A program made the position numbers and the translations under genes. A stretch of DNA of 64,000 nt, taken from positions 162,626,001-162,690,000 of the forward strand of contig NC_086100.1 of NCBI RefSeq assembly GCF_963921235.1, in the 5' to 3' direction. This document shows, in pieces, positions 11,443 through 55,277 of the stretch (its first letter is position 1; every line of letters starts with the position of its first letter). This DNA is from Mobula hypostoma. Its lineage: Eukaryota. Under the pieces are notes generated by a model. It made no database searches. It was not told where the DNA came from and worked only from the letters and a program-made list of their open reading frames with translations.

Positions 11443-14160
11443 TCAAAGTTCAAAGTTCATTGTAATTTTATTATCAATGAACATAAATGTCACCATATAC
11501 AACCCTAACATTTGTTTTCTTACGGCCATACTCAGTAAATCCAATAACCATAATAGAATCAATAAAAGACCGCAGGCAACCAGTATACAAAAGACAACAA
11601 ACTGTGCAAATACAAAATGTTAAAAATAATAATAAATAAGCAAAAAATATCAAAAATATGAGGTGAAGAATCCCTGAAAGTGAGTCCATTGGTTGTAGGA
11701 GCAGTTCAGCGATGGGGCAAAAGAAGTTATCTCTCCTGGTTCAAGAGCCTGATGATTGAGGGATAATAGTCATATTCATAGGCATAGTCATGCTTTATTA
11801 ATCCCGGGGGAAATTGGTTTTCGTTACAGTTGCTCCATAAATAATAAATAGTAATAGAACCATAAATAGTTAAATAGTAATATGTAAATTATGCCAGTAA
11901 ATTATGAAATAAGTCCAGGACCAGCCTATTGGCTCAGGATGTCTGACCCAGTTGTAAAGTTTGGCCACAGGCGGGAATGACTTCCTATGATGCTCAGTGC
12001 TGCATCTCGGTGGAACGAGTCTCTGGCTGAATGTACTCCTGTGCCCACCCAGTACATTATGTAGTGGATGGGAGACATTGACCAAGATGGCATGCAACTT
12101 AGACAGCATCCTCTTTTCAAACACCACCATGAGAGGGTCCAGTTCCATCCCCACAACATCACTGGCCTTATAAATGAGTTTCTTGATTCTGTTGGTGTCT
12201 GCCACCGTCAGCCTGCTGCCCCAGCACACAACAGCGAACATGATAGCACTGGCCACCACAGACTCGTAGAACATCCTCAGCATCGTCCGGCAGATATTAG
12301 AGGACCTCAGTCTCCTCAGGAAATAGAGACGGCTCTGACCCTTCTTGTAGACAGCCTCAGTGTTCTTAGACCAGTCCAGTTTATTGTCAATTTGTATCCC
12401 CAGGTATTTGTAATCCTCCACCATGTCCACACTGACCCCCTGCATGGAAACAGGGGTCACCAGTACCTTAGCTCTCCTCAGGTCTACCACCAGCTCCTTA
12501 GTCTTTATCACATTAAGCTGCAGATAATTCTGCTCACACCATGTGACAAAGTTTCCTACCGTAGCCCTGTACTCGGCCTCATCTCCCTTGCTGATACATC
12601 CAACTATGGCAGAGTCATCCGAAAACTTCTGAAGATGACAAGACTCTGTGCAGTAGTTGAAGTCCGAGGTGTAAATGGTGAAGAGAAAGGGAGACAAGAC
12701 ATTCCCCTGTGTAGCCCCAGTGCTGCTGATCACTCTGTCGGACACACAGTGTTGCAAGCACACGTACTGTGGTCTGCCAGTCGGGTAATCAAGAATCCAT
12801 GATACCAGGGAAGCATCCACCTGCATCGCTGTCAGCTTCTCCCCCAGCAGAGCAGGGCAGATGGTGTTGAACGCACTGGAGAAGTCAAAAAACATGACCT
12901 TCACAATGCTCGCTGGCTTCTCCAGGTGGGCGTAGACACGGTTCAGCAGGAAGATGATGGCATCCTCAACTCCTGGTCGGGGCTGGTGGGGGAACTGGAG
13001 GGGATCTTAGTGTGGACTGACCATAGGCCGGAGCAGCTCCAGAACAAGTCTCTCCAGGGTCTTCATGATGTGGGAGGTCAATGCCACCGGTCTGTAGTCA
13101 TCGAGGCCGCTGGGGTGCGGTGTCTTCGGCACAGGGATGAGGCAGGACGTCTTCCACAATACAGGAACCTTCTGGAGCCTCAGGCTCATGTTGAATACAT
13201 GGCGAAGTACTCCACATAGCTGAGGGGCTCAGGCTTTGAGCACCCTGGTACTGACACCATCCGGTCCTGCAGCCTTGCTTGGGTTGAGATGTTTCAGCTG
13301 TCTTCTCACCTGTAGAGCTGTGAAGCCCACCGTGGTGGTTTTGTGTGGGGAAGGGGTATAGTCATGAGAGCAGGGTGGGGGACTGTGAGGAGGGGTAGGA
13401 GGGGAGAGTGGAATATGTGTTGCTTGGGGGCCGACAACAGATGACTTATGTGTGGGATGGACAGGGGCCACACTGTCAAATCTGTTAAAGAACAGGTTAA
13501 GTTCATTGGCCCTGTCCACACTGCCACAGTCAGGAACTAATGACTGTTCCTGAACCTGGTGGTGTGAGCCCTGAGGCTCTTGAACCCTCTTCGTGATGGC
13601 AGCAGTGAGAGGAGAATGTGACCTAGAGTGGTGGGAGTCCCTGATGATGGATGCTGCTTTCCTGTGACAATGCTTCATGTAGATGTGCTCGATGGTTGGA
13701 AGGACTTTACCCATGATGGACCATATCCACTTCTTTTTGTAGGATTTTCCTTTCAAGGGGATTGCTGTTTCCATACCAGGGCTGTGATGCAGCCAGTCAA
13801 TATACTCTCCACCACACACCTTTAGAAGTATGTCAAAATTTAGATGTTATGCTGAATCTTTACAAACTTCTCAGGAAGTAGAGATGGTGCCCTGCATTTT
13901 TTTTTGCAATTGCACTTGCGTGCTGTGCCCAGGACAAATCCCCTGAAAGGATACCGCAAAGGAATTTAAAGTTGCTGATCCTTCCACCTCGGATCCCCCA
14001 ATGAGGACTAGGTCATGGACCTCCAGTGTCCTGCTTGTGAAGTCAATAATCAGCTCCTTGACCTTGCTGACATTGAGTAAGAGGTTGCTGTTGTGGCACC
14101 ACTGAGACAGATTGTCCGTCTCCCTCCTATATTCTGATATCATACCACTTGACTGACCTT
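11443..14160 (-). mobile_element. Older Rex1/Babar LINE (host), interrupted at 11764-13541 by a younger Rex1 copy
   Basis: SEYRRETDNLSQWCHNSNLLLNVSKVKELIIDF in ORF 13871-14425. Host sequence resumes across the insert (ggttcaagagcctgatgattgagggataat ... taatgactgttcctgaacctgg). Tail (tcaaagt)n near 11443-11458. Confidence 0.85.
11766..13525 (-). mobile_element. Young 5'-truncated Rex1/Babar LINE, copy 1, with (CTATGA)n tail
   Basis: RT motifs [41 protein letters not shown] and KFSDD. AATAAA followed by ctatga-type repeats on the - strand. Close paralogue of 44809-46513, with a few disruptions. Confidence 0.95.
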
Positions 14161-36566: not shown

Positions 36567-36831
36567 CAGTGGTCCCCAACCTCTGGGCCGCGGACCAATA
36601 CCGGGCCGCGAAGAATGCAGCGGTACAGCGGTAGCCGGCATGCACCCAGCACAAATCAGCAATCGTCTCTGATCTGGGCCAATGTTTACCTGCTGGGTGG
36701 CAGCTAATTAATTAGCTTGTTTATTTTGGCTTTTTTCTTAAAGATGTGCTGAGTACGTCCTGACTACTGCTGCACCCCTACATGCTTCGCGATCCGGTAT
36801 TGGTCCGCGGCCCGGAGGTTGGGGACCACTG
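36567..36831. mobile_element. hAT (Charlie-like) MITE, 265 bp
   Basis: Long TIRs cagtggtccccaacctctgggccgcggaccaataccgg and ccggtattggtccgcggcccggaggttggggaccactg. Exact 8-bp TSD gggtaaag at 36559-36566 and 36832-36839. Confidence 0.95.
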
Positions 36832-39040: not shown

Positions 39041-39092
39041 GAAACCAGGGAAGTAAAATGTTTGTGTCCCCACCACAGAAATAAGATGGAGG

Positions 39093-39284
39093 TGTTCTGT
39101 TCTTCATACGTACCATGGGTTACTCATAAAGACACATATTCTGGAAGAACATAACTAGAACTTTTATTTAACAACAAACAGCAACTATGTTTAACATACA
39201 AGCTTCTCGATCATTCTGTCAGTTCTGCACATGCTCAAACTCGGTCCAGTCACGTTCTGACACGTGACACATGATATCACCACA
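39093..39284 (-). repeat. 3' LTR
   Basis: TG...CA termini. Direct repeat of 40658-40850, with about 20 differences by hand alignment. AATAAA on the - strand. Confidence 0.95.
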
Positions 39285-39297
39285 TCTTCCTTTCCTT
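39285..39297 (-). other. Polypurine tract (PPT)
   Basis: The minus strand reads aaggaaaggaaga immediately before the 3' LTR. Confidence 0.88.
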
Positions 39298-39341
39298 AAA
39301 AAGAAAACAATTGGCAACATTAATCAAAACAAATGCATAAT

Positions 39342-39623
39342 TTAACATGTCTCTATCAGTCTCTCTGGGGGTTTACAAACACGAATAGACCTTCTAAGTG
39401 GTTCACACAGTTCTTATGTTTCATTGTTATTTTCATGTTTTGTCTGGTCTGCATCAGTTAATGGAAACTCTGAAGTTGGCTCTATCTTGAGGTCTTTGCG
39501 ATTTCTTCTTACCCCTGCTCCCTCCTCTGTTTGGACCATGTGTAATCTGGGTTGTACTTCTTCAAATACTGTAGCTTTCTGTGTCCATGTGTTCATTTTC
39601 TCTCGTATCCTTATTTTATCTCT
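39342..39623 (-). pseudogene. Gypsy pol C-terminal remnant (integrase C-terminal domain and tail)
   Basis: DKIRIREKMNTWTQKATVFEEVQPRLHMVQTEEGAGVRRNRKDL, then past one in-frame TAA (39414-39416) ELCEPLRRSIRVCKPPERLIETC*. These are typical Gypsy pol end motifs. Confidence 0.85.
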
Positions 39624-39794
39624 TTGTCCTTCAGACGAATGTCTCCTTAGGTCAGTCAATTCACGTTCTACTGCTTCCTTATACTGTTCCCACTGTGCGT
39701 GTTCTTGCTCTAGACGGTGATGAAACTGAATTTCATATTCTCTCAGTGTCTCTTTCATTATCGCTTGCATTGAAGCAACCTCCTCCTGCCACTT
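39624..39794 (-). pseudogene. RABEP1: Captured fragment of Rabaptin-5 (RAB GTPase-binding effector protein 1) coding sequence, N-terminal coiled coil
   Basis: Translates KWQEEVASMQAIMKETLREYEIQFHHRLEQEHAQWEQYKEAVERELTDLRRHSSEGQ. Gapless match to human RABEP1 ~110-165 as I recall it (WREEVASLQAVMKETVRDYEHQFHLRLEQERTQWAQYRESAEREIADLRRRLSEGQ). Needs BLAST confirmation. Confidence 0.88.
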
Positions 39795-39795
39795 G

Positions 39796-40547
39796 TTTTA
39801 TTTTCTTTCTACTTCAGCAACAGCATGAAAAATGATTACTCTTACCACAGCTGTTGCACACTTTCCAATACGCTGGACACATTGTAGGTCGTTGCTGCCG
39901 CCCACAGTGATCACAAAGTTTTTTTTCTTTCAGATGACGTCTTGCTCTCTGACAGTTTGGTTGTCGCTTCATTATTTTTTTTTAATATGTTCGTGCACAG
40001 CATGTATATTACAGTTCTCAATAAAAAGCTCTTTATCCTGCAACTTCACGGTTTCCGAAGCTTTGCAGAGAATCAAAGCTTTTTCCATTTTTACATTTGG
40101 TTCTCTTAAGAGTCTTTCTCTCAGAGCATTGTCCAGAATGCCGCAAACAATTCTGTCTTTAACGAGAGAGTCTGTCAGCTCTGCAAACTCACATGTTTTA
40201 CTGTGGTTTCTCAATTCCGTAACAATTTGATCAATCGTTTGACCAGCTTTCTGCTTGCATGTAAAGAATTTATACCGTTCATACGTCACATTGCATTTCA
40301 GTATGCAAAATGACTCAAACTTGTCGATTGTCACTTTTAGATTCAAATTATCTCCATCTTCAAAAGTAAAATGGTTATATACCTCAATTGCGTCATCCCC
40401 AATCACGTGGAGGAGAATTGTAGCTTTCGTTTTCTCTGTTTTATTATCTGCTCCGATAAATAAATTTCAAAACGCTGTTTAAATCTTTCTAGTTTTCAGC
40501 TACATTCCAGTCAGCTGAAGCATTGATGGAGGTTGCAAAACTTCCAT
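39796..40547 (-). pseudogene. Gypsy gag, frameshifted
   Basis: ATG at 40547 (MEVLQPPSMLQLTG...). Core reads NVTYERYKFFTCKQKAGQTIDQIVTELR...CEF..LTDSLVKDRIVCGI. Tandem knuckles CDHCGRQQRPTMCPAYWKVCNSCGKSNHFSCCC. Confidence 0.92.
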
Positions 40548-40644
40548 TCTTTAAGCTGTTAGCAAACAACGAAAAAGTTTGCGCTTTTTTTTGGATTATC
40601 TTCGCTTCTCCCGTGTTAGTGAAACAAATTATTCTTCCAGACTG

Positions 40645-40657
40645 ACTTCTGACACCA
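40645..40657 (-). other. Primer-binding site, tRNA-Leu type
   Basis: Minus strand tggtgtcagaagt directly after the 5' LTR. Complementary to the 3' end ACTTCTGACACCA of vertebrate tRNA-Leu(CAA) as recalled. Confidence 0.85.
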
Positions 40658-40850
40658 TATTGTGCTCTTTATATGTACCATGGGTTACTCATAAAGACAC
40701 ATATTCTGGAAGAACATAATTAGAACTTTTATTTAACAGCAAACTGCAACCACGTCTAACATACAAGCTTTTCGATCATTCTGTCAGTTCTGCGCATGCT
40801 CACAGCTCGGTCCAATCACGTTCTGACACGTTGCACATTATATCACCATA
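40658..40850 (-). repeat. 5' LTR
   Basis: Direct repeat of 39093-39284. Both terminal dinucleotides have mutated to TA. Confidence 0.95.
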
Positions 40851-43800
40851 GGAGGCATTAGAGATTATACAGAAAGATTTGAATTGATGATACCCAGCAA
40901 AAATATTAGAACCACAATACAACTCTGATAAGTTTTAAGCCACACTTAAAACTTTAACTCTGTTTTTTTTCAACCTGCAGATTTTATGGACTGTTGTTAT
41001 CACAATGACTATTCCAACCCACGTAAAATTAATTCTTTCTTACACACTGCACAACAGTAATGTGATATGATATACTGTTGAATATGATATATTTAAATAG
41101 TGTAAGAAACAGAAAAAGATGTGTTTCAAGTTTGCATGGGAATGGGATTTTAGTGAGTGTAGAAAAAGCACATGAATCAGAGCCTGATAAGTTTAAAGGG
41201 AGCTTGGGAACCAGGGCTCTAATGTGTTAATTGGAGAATAAAAATTAGACTGCAGTGAACCTGTTGTCCTTACCTGTTCCAGTCTATAAAAAATGACTTA
41301 TTGTTAACTGTGCTGCAACGTGGTTCAGGCTGAGGAGAAAATATGCAAAGTTGATCCATGTAATTTACTTCTAGGCTATATACCTGACCTGCTTGCCATG
41401 GAATCTGATTATGTATGTTGGGTTTAGGCAGGTGCTGTGTAGAACATTCAGCTTTAGGTGTGGCTGCATTGTGCAGACCAGTTCAATATTTCATCTGGGT
41501 CAGAATGATATGCAAAGTATTACCATATGTGTGAAATCATATTTGTACAACCTGGCTTGCTGTACGTTTTCCACAATCTTATTATTAACAACACATAATA
41601 CATGCAAAGAAGCATAATCTTCTACTTAATAGCCATGTACGTTATCTGGTTTCACCCCATCAGAGAGATTCCCTTTGTTCCACCACCCCAAATCCTGCAT
41701 ATTCTCTGACACTGAAATCCAACCTGTTTTCTTTTTTTTCCTATTCTGATGAAGGGTCTTGGATCTGAAATGTTAAATGTCTCTCTCTCTTTCTGTAGAT
41801 GTTGCCTGTCGTGTTGAGAGTTTCAGACATTTTCTGTTTTAATTAGAATATGTTTTATTCTTGGTCAATGTTTTCTGTTCTGTCCTCAAACAGTTCAATA
41901 TTGTGCTTGAAATTGATATATTTGTAAATCTGGATGGGTAAGATCGAGTAGAACATGAAACAGTACAGCACAGGACAGACCCTTCAACCCACGATATTGT
42001 GTCCAGCTAATTTAATGTCAGAGAAATGTGTACAATATACATCCTGGAATGCTTTAAACAATTAAACCAATTGCTCATAATTAATCTAATCCCTTGTCTC
42101 TACACATCGACCATATCTCTCTCTCTCTACATATTCATGTGCCTGTTTAAGAGTCTCTTAACCACTGTGTTCAGACCCGCTGTGTAAAAAAACTCACCTC
42201 ATACATCTCCCCTGTACTTCAACCCTGCTTAAAACAGTAGGTAAAACAATTATAAATCCTCAGGCTTTGATTATGTTTGGTTTAACTATGATTGGATAGG
42301 CCTTGGTTTGAGTTTTAATTTTATACATAAAGAGATCTTTAACCTGCCAGTTATTATCATTTGCTCGATAATATTATTTTGAATAACTATCTATTATATG
42401 TCTATGTCTGTAATATATGCCTGTTAATCTCTCAATATGTTCAATGACTAGACCTGCTGTAACTGATTTCACAGTAAAATTTCAAAATACGAACCTGGCC
42501 AGTTAATGACAAAGAAGTGTTTTCAGTCCAATAACTTGGCTGCAGTAACTAACAGATTGAATCTGTTATGACCTACAAAAATAAAGAGGTTGAGACTCAA
42601 ATTAAAAACAATCATTACAACACTGAGCATATGCGCTTACGAACAAATTTTTTTTTCCATGGCCCATTACTTGGAAACAATCGATTTCAGTAATTTATTT
42701 TATCTTCACAGCCATGTAGAATATCCCATTGACCCCAGGAGGTTTTGGAGATTTATTCATCTAAATGTTGTGAGCAACTCAGCATTTAAAGTACATCCCT
42801 GGTAATATTCTGACTCCCCTTAGATTTGAAGGTAAAGGGTCTTCAGTGTCTTGTCTGTGAATTAACACAAATTCTAGTGTTAGGATGAATATTGAGCTGT
42901 GTAAATGGGTACGCACACACAGAGCCAAATGGCTTATTTCTTGAAGGCACAAGAGACTGCAGATGCTAGAATCTAGAGACTGCACATTATCCATATTCCT
43001 CCATTTCTTGCTTATTCAAGTGTCAATCAAAAGCCAGTTAATGACACTATTATTTCTGCTTCCGCTACTCCCCCGGCATCCTTTTCCAGGCTCTCACCAT
43101 TCTGTGTAATAAACTTGCCCTGCAACTGGAGGACCTGAGCTGATTAAGTTAGGGCTTTATTCACTGGAGCAGAGGAGAATAAGGAGAGATCGTATAAAGG
43201 TATAAATTAAGAGGGATATAGATATGGTGAATGTATGCAGGCTTTTTGCCCAGAGAAGGCGGAACAACTGAAATCAGAACTTCTCAAGAGGCCACTGTTT
43301 GAAGAGCATAAAGACCTCAGAAAGCTGTAGGATCAGAAGTTGTCTAGAAGATGAAGATGGCCAAAGTTCCAGAGAAATCTTGTAAATCAACTGCGGGGAT
43401 ATTAAATACCAGAAGAAACAACACACTGGACCATTGCTACACCACCATCAAGAATGCCTTCTGTGCTATTCCGTGCCCTCACTTAGGGAAGTCTGATCAC
43501 CTGGCTGTACTTCTACTCCCTGAGTATAAGCAGACACTGAAGACTGCAGCACCAGCAGTGAGGACCAAGAAGGTATGGACAAGGGAAGCAACGGAGTGCC
43601 TAAGGGACTGCTTTGAATTGGTAGACTGGACTGTATTCAGGGATTCATCTTTGAACCTGGATGAGAATGCTGCAGTTGTTAACGACTTCATTAAAACCTG
43701 TGTGGATGAGTGTCTGCCCACAAAGACTTACTGTACATTCCCAAATCAAAAGCCGTGGATGAACCAGGATGTATGTCATCTGCTGAAGGCTAGATCTGTG

Positions 43801-44179
43801 GCATTCAAGTCTGGCGACCCAGGCCTGTACCAGAAAACCAGGTACGATTTGCGGAGGGCTATTTCAAGGGTGAAGAGACAATTTTGAATGAGGTTGGAGG
43901 TGACCTCAGATGCATGGCAACTCTGGCAGGGTCTGCAAGACATTACTTCCTACAAAGCAAGACCCAATAGTATGAATGGCAGTGATGAACCAGATGAACT
44001 CAACGCTTTCTATGCATGCTTTGAAAGGGAGAACACAACTACAGCTGTGAAGATCCCTGCTGTACCTGATGACCCTGTGATCCCTGTCTCAGAGACCGAT
44101 GTTAGGCTGTCTTTAAAGAGAGTGTACCCTCGCAAGGTGGACGATCCTGATGGAGTACCTGGTAAGGCTCTGAAAACCT

Positions 44180-46366
44180 GTGCTAACCAGCTGGCGGGAG
44201 TATTCAAGGACATTTTCAACCTTTCACTGCTATGGGAGGAAGTTCCCACTTGCTTCAAAAAGGCAACAATTCTACCAGTGCCTAAGAAGAATAATGGGCT
44301 GCCTTAATGACTATCACCTGGTGGCACTCACATCGACAGTGATAAAATATTTTGAGAGGTTGGTCATGACTAGACTGAACTCCTGCCTCAGCAAGGACCT
44401 GGACCCATTGCAATTTGCCTATCACCATAATAGGTCAACGGCAGACGCAATCTCAATGGCTCTCCACACAGCTTTAGACCACCTGGACAACTCAAACACC
44501 TACGTCAGGATGCTGTTCATCGACTACAGCTTGGCATTTAATACCATTATTCACACAATCCTGATTGAGAAGTTGCAGAACTTGGGCCTCTGTACCTCCC
44601 TCTGCAATTGGATCCTCGACTTCCTAAATGGAAGACCACAATCTGTGGGGATTGGTGATAACATATCCTCCTCGCTGACAATCAACACTGAAGACTGCAG
44701 CACTAGCAGGGGTGTGTGCTTATCCCACTGCTCTACTCTCTATATACACATGACTGTGTGCCTAGACATAGCTCAAATACCATCTATAAATACCATTAAA
44801 TACATCTATGTGGCCCCTGCCCACCCCCCATATGAGTCATCTGTTGTTGGCCCCCAACCAGCACATATTCCACTCTCCCCTCCTACCCCTCCTCACAGTC
44901 CCCCACCCTGCTCTCATGACTATACCCCTTTCCCACACGAAACCACCACGGTGGGCTTGACAGCTGAACAGGTGAGAAGACAGCTGAAACGTCTCAACCC
45001 AAGCAGGGCTGCAGGCTCGGATGGTGTCAGTACCAGGGTGCTCAAAGCCTGTGCCCCTCAGCTATGTGGAGTACTTTGTCATGTCTTCAACCTGAGCCTG
45101 AGTCTCCAGAGGGTTCCTGTGCTTTGGAAGACGTCCTGCCTCGTCCCTGTGCCGAAGACGCCGCGCCCCAGTGGCTTCAATGACTACAGACCGGTGGCAT
45201 TGACCTCCCACATCATGAAGACCCTGGAGAGACTTGTTCTGGAGCTGCTCCGGACTAATATTAGGCCATACTTAGATCCCCTCCAGTTCGCCTACCAGCC
45301 CCGACTAGGAGTTGAGGATGCCATCGTCTACCTGCTGAACCGTGTCTATGCCTACCAGAACAAGCCAGCGAGCACTGTGAGGGTCATGTTTTTTGACTTC
45401 TCCAGTGCGTTCAACACCATCCACCCTGCTCTGCTGGGGGATAAGCTGACAGCGATGCAGGTGGATGCCCTGGTATCATGGATTCTTGATCACCTGACTA
45501 GCAGACCACAGTACGTGTGCTTGCAACACTGTGTGTCCGACAGAGTGATCAGCAGCACTGGGGCTCCACAGGGGACTGTCTTGTCTCCCTTTCTCTTCAC
45601 CATTTACACCTTGGACTTCAACTATTGCACAGAGTCTTGTCATCTTCAGAAGTTTTCGGATGACTCTGCCATAGTTGGATGTATCAGCAAGGGAGATGAG
45701 GCTGAGTACAGGGCTATGGTAGGAAACTTTGTCACATGGTGTGAGCAGAATTATCTGCAGCTTAATGTGATAAAGACTAAGGAGCTGGTGGTAGACCTGA
45801 GGAGAGCTAAGGTACTGGTGACCCCTGTTTCCATCCAGGGGGTCAGTGTGGACATGGTGGAGGATTACAAATACCTGGGGATACAAATTGACAATAAACT
45901 GGACTGGTCTAAGAACACTGAGGCTGCCTACAAGAAGGGTCAGAGCCGTCTCTATTTCCTGAGGAGACTGAGGTCCTCTAACATCTGTTGGACGATGCTG
46001 AGGATGTTCTACGAGTCTGTGGTGTCCAGTGCAATCATGTTTGCTGTTGTGTGCTGGGGCAGCAGGCTGAGGATAGCAGACACCAACAGAATCAACAAAT
46101 TCATTCGTAAGGCCAGTGATGTTGTGGGGATGGAACTGGACTCTCTGACGGTGGTGTCTGAAAAGAGGATGCTGTCCAAGTTGCATGCCATCTTGGACAA
46201 TGTCTCCCATCCACTACATAATGGACTGGTTGGGGACAGGAGTACATTCAGCCAGAGACTCATTCCACCAAGATGCAACACTGAGCGTCATAGGAAGTCA
46301 TTCCTGCCTTCGGCCATCAAACTTTATAACTCCTCCCTTAGAGGTTCAGACACCCTGAGCCAATAG
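44180..46366 (+). pseudogene. Chimeric 728-codon ORF spanning two nested Rex1 elements: partial host RT plus uninterrupted RT of the insert
   Basis: From the ORF track; first in-frame ATG at 44294. RT N-terminal motifs occur twice ([21 protein letters not shown], then [36 protein letters not shown]). No endonuclease and no evidence of expression. Confidence 0.8.
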
Positions 46367-53124: not shown

Positions 53125-55277
53125 ACAGTGGAGTAAAGGGAATTAAGGCAGCATGAGAGAGGAGCTGGCCAAAATTAATTGGAAGAGGACATTAGCAGGG
53201 ATGATGGTAAAGCAACAATGGCTGGAGTTTCAGTGAACAAGCCGAAATACACAGGATAAAGAAGAGGTTGCATTCAAAAGGCAGGATGATGCAACCATGG
53301 CTGACAAAGGAATTCAAAACCAACATAAAAGCCAACAAGAGGGCATATAATAGAGCAAAAATTAGTGGGAAGTTGGAGAATTGGGAAGCTTTGACAAATT
53401 AACAGAACCAACTAAAAAGTCATAAAGAAGGAAAAGAAGAAATACCAATGTAAGCTAGTCCGTAATATTAAAGAGGATACCAAAAGTTGTTTCAGATATA
53501 TAAAGTGTAAAAGAGATACGAGAGTAGATATCAGATTACGGAAAATTATGCACAAGAGGTAGTAATGAGGAAAAAGGAAATGACAGATGAAGTGAATAAG
53601 TATTTTGCTTCAGTCTTCACTGTGGAAGACACTAGCAGTATGGCAGAAGTTCGAGATTGTCAGGGGTAGAAGTGAGTGAAGTTGCTGTTACTAGGGAAAA
53701 GGTTCTCGGGAAATTGGAAGGTCTGAAGGTAGATAAATCACTTGGATCAGGTGGTCTACACCCCAGGGTTCTGAAAAAAGGTGGCTGAAGAGATTGCAGA
53801 GCCATAAGTAATGATCTTTCAAGAATCAATCAATTCTGGCATGGTTCCAAAGGGCTGGAAAATTCCAAATGTTACTCCACTGTTCAAGACTGGAGAGAGG
53901 CAGAACAAAGGAAATTATGGGCCAGTTAGCCCATCATCAGTGTTTGGGAACATGTTGCTGTGGAGATGTGGTTTTGGGGTACTTGGAGGCACATGATAAA
54001 ATAAGCATGGTTTCCTCAAGGGAAATGACAAGCAGGATAGACAAAGGAAAATCAGTGGATGTTGTATACTTGGATCTTCTGAAGGCCTTTGCCAAGATGC
54101 CGCGCATTTAGCTGCTTAACAATTTAAGAGCCCATGGTATTACAGGAAAGATACTAGCATAGGTAGAGCATAAGCTGATTGGCAGGAGGCAAAGTGTGGG
54201 AATAAAGGGAGCCCTTTCTGCTCAGCTGCCGGTGACTAGTGGTGTTGTACATGGGTCTGTGTTAGGACTGCTTATTTTCACATTGCAAGTCAAAGATTTG
54301 GATGATGGAATTGATGGCTTTGTGGCCAAGTTTGCAGATGATATGAAGATAGGTGGAGGGGTAGGCAGTGTTTCAGAAGCAAAGAGGCTACAGAAGGACT
54401 TAGACAGATTAGGAGAATGGGCAAAGATGTGGCAGATGGAATACAGTGTCAGGAAGTATATGGTCATGCACTTTGGTAGAAGAAATAAAAGTGTAGTCTA
54501 CTTTCTAAATGGAGAGAAAATTCAAAAACCTGAGGTGCAAAGGGACTTGGTAGTCCTTGTGCAGGATTCCCTAAAGGTTAATTTGCAGGTTGAGTCAGTG
54601 GTGAGGAAGGCAGGTGCAATGTTAGCACGCATTTCAAGAGCAATAGAATATAAAAGCAAGGATGTAATGTTGAGGCTTTATTAGGTGCGGGTGAGGCCTC
54701 ACTTGGAGTATTGCACGGGTGAGGCCTCACTTGGAATATTATAAACAGTTTTGGGCCTCTTATCTAAGAAGGAATATGCTGATACTGGAGAGGATTCATG
54801 AAAATGATTCAGGATGGACAGGCTTGTCATATGAGGAGAGATTGATGGCTCTGGGCCTCTACTGTTTGGAATTCAGAAGAATTAAGGGAGATCTCGTTGA
54901 AGCCTTTTGAATGTTGGAAGGCCTCGATTGATTGGATGTGGAGAGGATATTTCCTCTGTTGGGGGAGTCTATGACCAGAGGATGTAGCCCCAGAATAGGG
55001 GGATGTCCATTTAGAATGGAGATGAGAATGATTTCCTTCAACCAGAGAGTGGTGAATCTGTAGAATTCATTGCTACAGGCAGCTATGGAGGCTAAATCAT
55101 CGGGTATATTTAAGGCAGAGATTGATAGATTTTTGGTTAGTCAGGGCATGAAGGGATATGAGGAGAATGCAGAAGATTGGGGCTGAAAGGGAAATGAATT
55201 AGCCATGATGAATTGGAGGAGCATACTCCATGGGCCAAATGGCCGAATTTTGTTCCTATATCTTATAGTCTTATGGT
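53125..55277 (+). mobile_element. CR1 LINE, about 2.15 kb, frameshifted, with an internal ~28-bp tandem duplication near 54689-54745
   Basis: WKIPNVTPLFK, VVYLDLLKAF, VTSGVVHGSVLG, KFADDMKIGG and RPHLEY. Tail tcttatagtcttatggt. Confidence 0.93.

Follow-up and report, generated by a model that had tools for sequence, protein, structure and literature searches.

The replacement of LTR-element coding sequence by host mRNA is known from several systems. The animal LTR retrocopies described by Tan et al. (2016) carry a partial spliced mRNA in place of the internal ORF and keep both LTRs; the sections cited report a median 6-bp microsimilarity, multi-gene chimeras, secondary retroposition and one family with switch points near exon junctions (PMC5131818). 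The maize LTR element Bs1 holds pieces of several host genes in a hybrid ORF and was re-mobilised with common switch points (PMC5131818, PMC13317346). CrocERV29 (KIT-ligand) and CrocERV31 (nectin3) are vertebrate LTR lineages that amplified with captured mRNA and occur across species (PMC4299795). Mouse IAP 1-delta-1 carries a deletion and is non-autonomous; it out-transposes its helper, and its Gag-Pol fusion promotes retrotransposition in cis (PMC6466679, PMC7411935). Ty1, which reportedly packages intact RNAs and, in trans, also defective ones, is a counter-example to cis packaging, and its RNA may need some translation for stability (PMC3945221).

The Ty3/Gypsy family of rays analysed here, with pieces of RABEP1 and SH3KBP1, shows the features of the Tan et al. 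retrocopies, namely intron-less ORF replacement, microsimilarity and secondary retroposition (PMC5131818). By contrast, the cases in that account have one or few insertion sites, while the ray family has hundreds of copies and at least 16 amplified junctions; "in frame" there refers to the parental protein, and here to continuity with gag and the integrase tail (PMC5131818). Bs1 is described as present in one to five copies, and a host function has been proposed for it, whereas the ray family consists of hundreds of dead copies with no sign of domestication (PMC5131818, PMC13317346). The crocodilian elements are retroviruses, with nine and six copies, and their captures are whole ORFs under purifying selection that lie apart from pol; in the ray family the cargo is partial and fused to Gag, with no selection found (PMC4299795). 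In the accounts cited, IAP 1-delta-1 is an ERV with one deletion, no host cargo and an experimental demonstration, whereas the case of the ray Gypsy family is read from many natural junctions. The capture mechanism is already known (Tan 2016; Bs1), and what is new relative to known captures is the scale, the exchange of two cargoes among helper lineages and the many independent junctions. The initial annotation of the locus knew of no such element, a statement that does not hold given Tan 2016, Bs1 and the crocodilian ERVs, which are of like kind. No RABEP1 or SH3KBP1 capture was reported in the literature searched, a body of work with most subscription papers and Repbase outside its reach, and a keyword search of the main text of a 2026 mobulid genome preprint likewise returned none.

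The window, the whole stretch of 64,000 nt of Mobula hypostoma DNA that was analysed (NC_086100.1, positions 162,626,001 to 162,690,000), contains one copy on its minus strand (40850-39093), in the order 5' LTR, primer-binding site (PBS), gag, foreign piece, integrase tail, polypurine tract (PPT), 3' LTR. Its parts are as follows.

39088..39092, no strand: left copy of the target-site duplication (TSD) GGAGG (sequence; in an organism D contig 40851 and 39087 adjoin, with GGAGG present once)
39093..39284, minus: 3' LTR, TG...CA, 192 nt (direct-repeat comparison)
39285..39297, minus: PPT (sequence)
39342..39618, minus: C-terminal tail of integrase, up to the native stop (continues the rve-bearing frame of full-length copies)
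39619..39626, minus: 3' switch point, 8-nt microhomology between RABEP1 exon 4 and integrase, in frame (partner comparison)
39627..39751, minus: captured RABEP1 exon 4, 5' part (91% to G000:C71:53165281-53165144)
39752..39790, minus: captured RABEP1 exon 3, last 39 nt (abuts exon 4, the 9,063-nt intron gone)
39791..39792, minus: secondary deletion junction, gag end to RABEP1 (sister-locus alignment)
39793..40547, minus: gag with its zinc knuckle (runs colinear with the gag of full-length partners)
40645..40657, minus: PBS, 13 nt (complementary to a tRNA 3' end plus CCA)
40658..40850, minus: 5' LTR, 193 nt, starting TA rather than TG in this copy (repeat comparison)
40851..40855, no strand: right copy of the TSD GGAGG (sequence)

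This is the architecture that the initial annotation had described, with 1,373 nt between the LTRs and without the protease (PR), RT, RNase H (RH) and integrase-core domains. The foreign segment was there as described but not within the limits 39624-39794, the host-only sequence running from about 39790 to 39627. Direct LTRs with TG...CA ends, a PBS, a PPT and a TSD in the 4-6 bp range are all present, as in Ty3/Gypsy elements. The PBS complements a genomic tRNA with an intron and a long variable arm, labelled Thr(cgt) by ARAGORN, which we take to be Leu(CAA); an ARAGORN run without introns gave no tRNA at this match. No env lies between pol and the 3' LTR, the integrase stop standing 44 nt before the PPT in a region where the partners are colinear, and an endogenous retrovirus or env-bearing element was ruled out. 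TRIM and LARD elements have no internal coding domains, and this class was rejected on the retained gag and integrase tail. A domesticated chimeric gene was also rejected for this locus: the frame of the window copy is broken, the copy is absent in organism D and the changes in the cargo look neutral. The gag translation contains stops and frameshifts, and Pfam gave no match for the gag frames of the window. The copy is a dead fossil, a decayed deletion derivative and not the capture product itself.

The LTRs of the window copy differ at 17 of 188 aligned sites. Public contigs, from a comparison that drew on 4 of the 24 listed sequencing runs, cross both insertion junctions in organism B, and the assembly chimera envisaged as a refutation at the outset did not apply; one record of organism D passes straight from 40851 to 39087 with one GGAGG, the empty orthologous site in a relative that had been sought. 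The LTR pair is 9.0% apart (7.4% without CpG), and the flanks differ from organism D (run X10) at 65 positions in about 1,150 nt, or about 6%, a mismatch that could be explained by LTRs already unequal at insertion, by an element that decayed faster or by incomplete lineage sorting.

The identity of the foreign piece as RABEP1, proposed from the letters alone, was borne out. The frame 39417-39797(-) matches Pfam Rabaptin (PF03528, E 3.6e-26, residues 2-68), and at the DNA level its identity to two exons of RABEP1 in this genome is 94% and 91%; this parental gene lies on contig C71 of the 3.48-Gb assembly (G000) and has at least 13 exons. In a protein search with the piece from a longer copy, the 120 matches listed, of 283, were named RABEP1 or Rabaptin-domain entries, some of the latter under other names or unnamed, and none of those listed was named RABEP2, in line with the expectation that RABEP1 would come well ahead; a PDB search with the window RABEP1 frame gave no match. 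The closest named proteins to the cargo pieces are from myliobatiform rays and sawfish. Since exons 3 and 4 are joined without the 9,063-nt intron, the piece came from spliced RNA, as the captured-mRNA claim required, and neither poly(A) nor a TSD surrounds the cargo.

The longest RABEP1 form is seen at 8 loci, measures about 2.4 kb and contains gag, protease, the first part of RT, about 113 RABEP1 codons and then the integrase tail. Its 5' switch falls in 6 nt common to partner RT and the mRNA, in frame, and its 3' switch in 8 nt common to integrase and exon 4, also in frame; the latter microhomology has one mismatch in the window copy, and the diagonal is identical at 44 of 45 loci. The window type arose afterwards by a deletion that reaches from the gag end into exon 3; it was found at 11 loci by alignment and 7 by strict pattern, and 10 of the 11 fall in one gag clade. 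At this gag/RABEP1 junction the window copy is 11 nt shorter than its sister copies, and the type is in frame at 7 of 11 sister loci. Template switching, as initially proposed, thus agrees with the 6- and 8-nt microhomologies, but two switches are insufficient to make the 1.76-kb element, which needs in addition a third event, the deletion from the 2.4-kb form in which protease and the RT start are kept. A 9-nt RT/RABEP1 match lies a few bases downstream of the 5' switch (L127, L128), but out of frame, and all amplified copies use the 6-nt in-frame match at this junction, not the longer one. An alternative in-frame RABEP1-integrase junction occurs at L015. L046, L051, L053 and L154 have several T>C and A>G changes in common within the RABEP1 piece, L154 being of a different structural type from the other three, so that recombination or RNA editing is possible.

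Many copies carry another coiled-coil cargo, which had escaped the initial annotation, as had the frame rule set out below. Pfam returned solely a sub-threshold Atg11 match for this piece, and its identity as SH3KBP1/CIN85 comes from the PDB (2n64, E 6e-14) and from homologues (96% to ray SH3KBP1). The parent gene was found on contig C18 with a unique part of the protein, a whole-protein query returning mostly element copies. The cargo covers four exons, with three introns gone, and ends four codons short of the host stop; comparison of full-length partners with the parent mRNA gives switch microhomologies of 8 and 7 nt. In one subfamily with both cargoes, 41 SH3KBP1 codons are nested inside the RABEP1 piece. 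At L078, L082, L114, L150-L152, L159 and L165 a second SH3KBP1 5' junction includes 46 nt more of host and less of the element, and since neither 5' junction is a deletion of the other, the mRNA probably entered twice, or a longer ancestor was lost. L040 has an alternative in-frame RABEP1-SH3KBP1 junction, and L188 has the two-cargo cassette repeated in tandem. In the gag tree, whose bootstrap was not settled, the two-cargo copies form a distinct lineage with the native-integrase copy L121 (branch 0.15, support 100/100) and the single-cargo types are interspersed, a pattern implying that cassettes moved between helper sublineages.

The claim of a non-autonomous multi-copy family was confirmed. 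The spliced RABEP1 exon 3/4 junction occurs at 141 places in the genome and the last spliced SH3KBP1 junction at 262, some of which also carry RABEP1, and an ORF-end motif gives 464 matches (each at ≤3 mismatches, with 0 for the reversed-pattern control). Among 41 two-LTR elements, 29 have a 5-bp TSD at ≤1 mismatch, 18 of them exact and all different, some of the misses being errors in end placement. Switch points are common to separate loci, as expected of secondary retroposition. In all four sequencing runs the RABEP1 part has about 100 to 500 times the depth of unique flank, a rough sign of abundance and not a copy count. A 35-nt integrase-tail motif has 318 genome matches (≤2 mismatches), of which 100 places were listed and 89 fetched and classified, the other 11 being cargo copies found by earlier queries. 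The 89 comprise 53 with native integrase (classified from 1.5 kb upstream only), 27 with SH3KBP1, 3 with RABEP1, 2 with both and 4 unclassified that look interrupted by insertions, with no third cargo among them.

A partner of the autonomous type, looked for at the outset, was also found. Six of 10 native copies fetched at length have a 5' LTR and gag at full-length spacing, and three full-length partners measure 4.37-4.40 kb. The pol order in four copies (L118, L119, L122, L125) is the PR-RT-RH-IN of Gypsy, and the integrase tail is the end of their rve-domain frame. All six full-length partner copies carry stops and frameshifts, and mean LTR divergence is 8.4% for RABEP1 copies (n=15), 8.3% for SH3KBP1 copies (n=20) and 10.5% for native copies (n=5), with mean cargo divergence from the parents of 5.3% (RABEP1) and 4.2% (SH3KBP1). 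The family is old, and dead in the copies examined. The window element, about 9% decayed and with every full-length partner examined broken, is accordingly not mobilisable in trans today as a coding unit, contrary to what had been proposed. Annotated proteins of Hemitrygon and Hypanus have identical cargo junctions, and the captures and the hybrid therefore predate the split from those stingrays, unless they moved horizontally.

The junctions that spread obey a frame rule. It was scored on 156 distinct loci, a sample and not a census, scanned against separate natural reference pieces, with junctions containing >30 unmatched bases and same-part deletions <20 nt left out; a junction type was called shared when its commonest form occurred at two or more loci. 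The type is in frame in 16 of 17 shared cases versus 17 of 33 single-locus cases (Fisher p 0.0037). Of the exact 4-8 nt microhomologies that these sequences share, 38-44% are in frame, and 16/17 has a binomial p of 2e-5 at 0.444; with two types that lie on one diagonal merged, the conservative count is 15/16 (p 5e-5). To allow for the preference of profile and protein searches for open frames, the count was repeated on the 128 loci from DNA queries only, giving 16/16 shared versus 11/25 single-locus types in frame. Within gag-PR, the junction falls upstream of the zinc-knuckle end in 0/10 shared versus 9/20 single types (p 0.013). Small-indel deviants occur within shared types (e.g. 11 of 44 copies at the SH3KBP1-integrase junction), and the single-locus in-frame rate is consequently somewhat deflated by decay. 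Two exceptions stand near the ORF end, with the stop displaced by no more than about 200 nt from the native position: a shared out-of-frame deletion of 46 nt among the last codons (2 loci), and the loss of 1 nt directly behind the SH3KBP1 coiled coil, found at 8 loci that belong to several subtypes and show no linking variant. Slippage-prone runs within gag-PR carry short frameshifts in a number of copies (e.g. 7 of 74 at one site), which probably arose more than once. Stop-free natural frames cross the junctions in several copies, giving a continuous Gag-fusion frame. This in-frame bias of the spread rearrangements suggests that the passenger RNA needed translation in order to jump.

The best reading, to which in its entirety (capture, copying in trans and frame-filtered amplification) we give a probability of about 0.75, starts from a Ty3/Gypsy element with one ORF and a length of about 4.4 kb, which would have co-packaged host mRNAs. 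To judge by the junctions, its RT almost certainly switched onto spliced RABEP1 mRNA and back at microhomologies, and the capture would have replaced most of RT, RNase H and the integrase core; in a separate event the 3' coding end of SH3KBP1 was acquired. The chimeras kept LTRs, PBS and PPT and were copied by enzymes that intact partners presumably supplied in trans, and further switches between co-packaged family RNAs, most plausibly within the particle, probably produced the deletions of the window type and the RABEP1/SH3KBP1 hybrids. Spliced cargo, microhomologies, separate insertions, frame bias and gag retention are all seen in the copies, and the pattern that solely products with a whole gag and an open frame to near the native stop amplified probably reflects selection on the frame. 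On this reading translation of the trans-mobilised RNAs would have been required, past gag and almost as far as the native stop, as reported for IAP 1-delta-1, likely from a need for translation in cis, either in that the RNA's own Gag fusion aids its packaging, or in that an early stop triggers nonsense-mediated decay, or both; the cargo would be mostly an in-frame passenger. Gag retention fits a cis-acting Gag and a packaging signal in gag alike, and the frame bias beyond gag fits a needed C-terminus and nonsense-mediated decay alike.

The observation that counts against frame selection as the sole cause is that amplified simple cargo-less deletions were not seen among the 89 integrase-tail copies. 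It bears on the idea that the cargo itself helped, in that a host coiled coil on Gag, by way of oligomerisation or endosomal docking, or host-like RNA lowering silencing, let the captures beat plain deletions. Both cargoes are coiled-coil segments (Pfam; PDB 2n64/5abs) from endocytic adaptors, 32 of the 89 copies carry cargo, the cargo-less internal deletions (L102, L156, L182, L192) are four different single events, and the tolerated shared frameshifts follow the coiled coil. On the other hand, either gene serves, at cargo lengths from about 55 to about 155 codons, and no purifying selection is seen, private non-CpG changes being nonsynonymous/synonymous 124/39 (RABEP1) and 223/52 (SH3KBP1) and changes in at least 3 copies 32/12 and 24/13, respectively, with few lineage-fixed changes and hence low power. 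The same lack of purifying selection leaves the initial suggestion that the family spreads a Rab5-effector fragment without functional support, the piece being an N-terminal coiled coil. Plain deletions are expected far oftener than captures, yet none amplified, and for this reason a cargo effect is kept in view as unlikely but worth weighing; the stronger form, in which Gag-cargo fusions were the adaptive unit and an RNA that encoded its own coiled coil in cis was better assembled or trafficked and so outcompeted plain deletions, is tentative to the same degree, and in that case ray genomes would offer a natural screen for cargo that raises retrotransposition.

The remaining explanations dispense with either selection, template switching or retroposition. 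That microhomology between coding sequences merely favours in-frame switches, with lucky master copies doing the rest, gains something from a null above one third (0.38-0.44) and from single-locus junctions that are about half in frame, but 16/17 far exceeds both rates (p 2e-5 and 2e-4) and the excess holds in the DNA-ascertained loci, leaving this explanation improbable. RABEP1 might instead have been gained by read-through and splicing from an element in RABEP1 intron 2. The 5' junction does lie one base inside exon 3, but that exon's first base is absent, the partner's own RT contains the six junction bases, the 3' junction lies within exon 4 at the 8-nt match to integrase, and no other match to the window element was found in the 140 kb fetched around RABEP1; this route is still less credible. 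An assembly chimera or spread by segmental duplication could account for the few copies in close pairs or triplets (C142; C1 near 168.4 Mb) and is refuted for the family, with next to no probability left, by different TSDs on many contigs, the organism B junction contigs, the organism D empty site and the proteins of two other rays with identical junctions.

The preferred reading, in which a translated frame was needed for spread, makes the family a fossil-record test of the rule that translation is needed for the RNA of a non-autonomous LTR element to move, a rule reported from experiments on a single mouse element, IAP 1-delta-1 (primary study, Saito 2008). Such a rule would filter the host fragments that can spread to those in sense orientation, in frame and ending before the host stop, and LTR-mediated exon shuffling would consequently be biased toward protein fusions. 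The RABEP1 and SH3KBP1 fragments that ray genomes contain by the hundred are transposon cargo, and two are annotated as uncharacterized stingray proteins, which can inflate gene-family counts.

An unrelated Gypsy family carries a Sds3-domain cargo (e.g. L217-L224), with 119 matches among 150 scored of 331 candidates; membership of these SUDS3-bearing loci in the same family was rejected at 8 of 8, with no blastn match and a gag-PR protein identity of just 25-34%. Elsewhere in the window, no host gene was recognised among 19 frames of at least 140 codons (6 scanned), and RVT_1 matches mark RT remnants, probably of LINEs, at 11870-13006 (-), 44174-46366 (+) and 54163-54684 (+). A MITE-like inverted repeat with 87-nt arms, 84% complementary, lies at 36567-36831.
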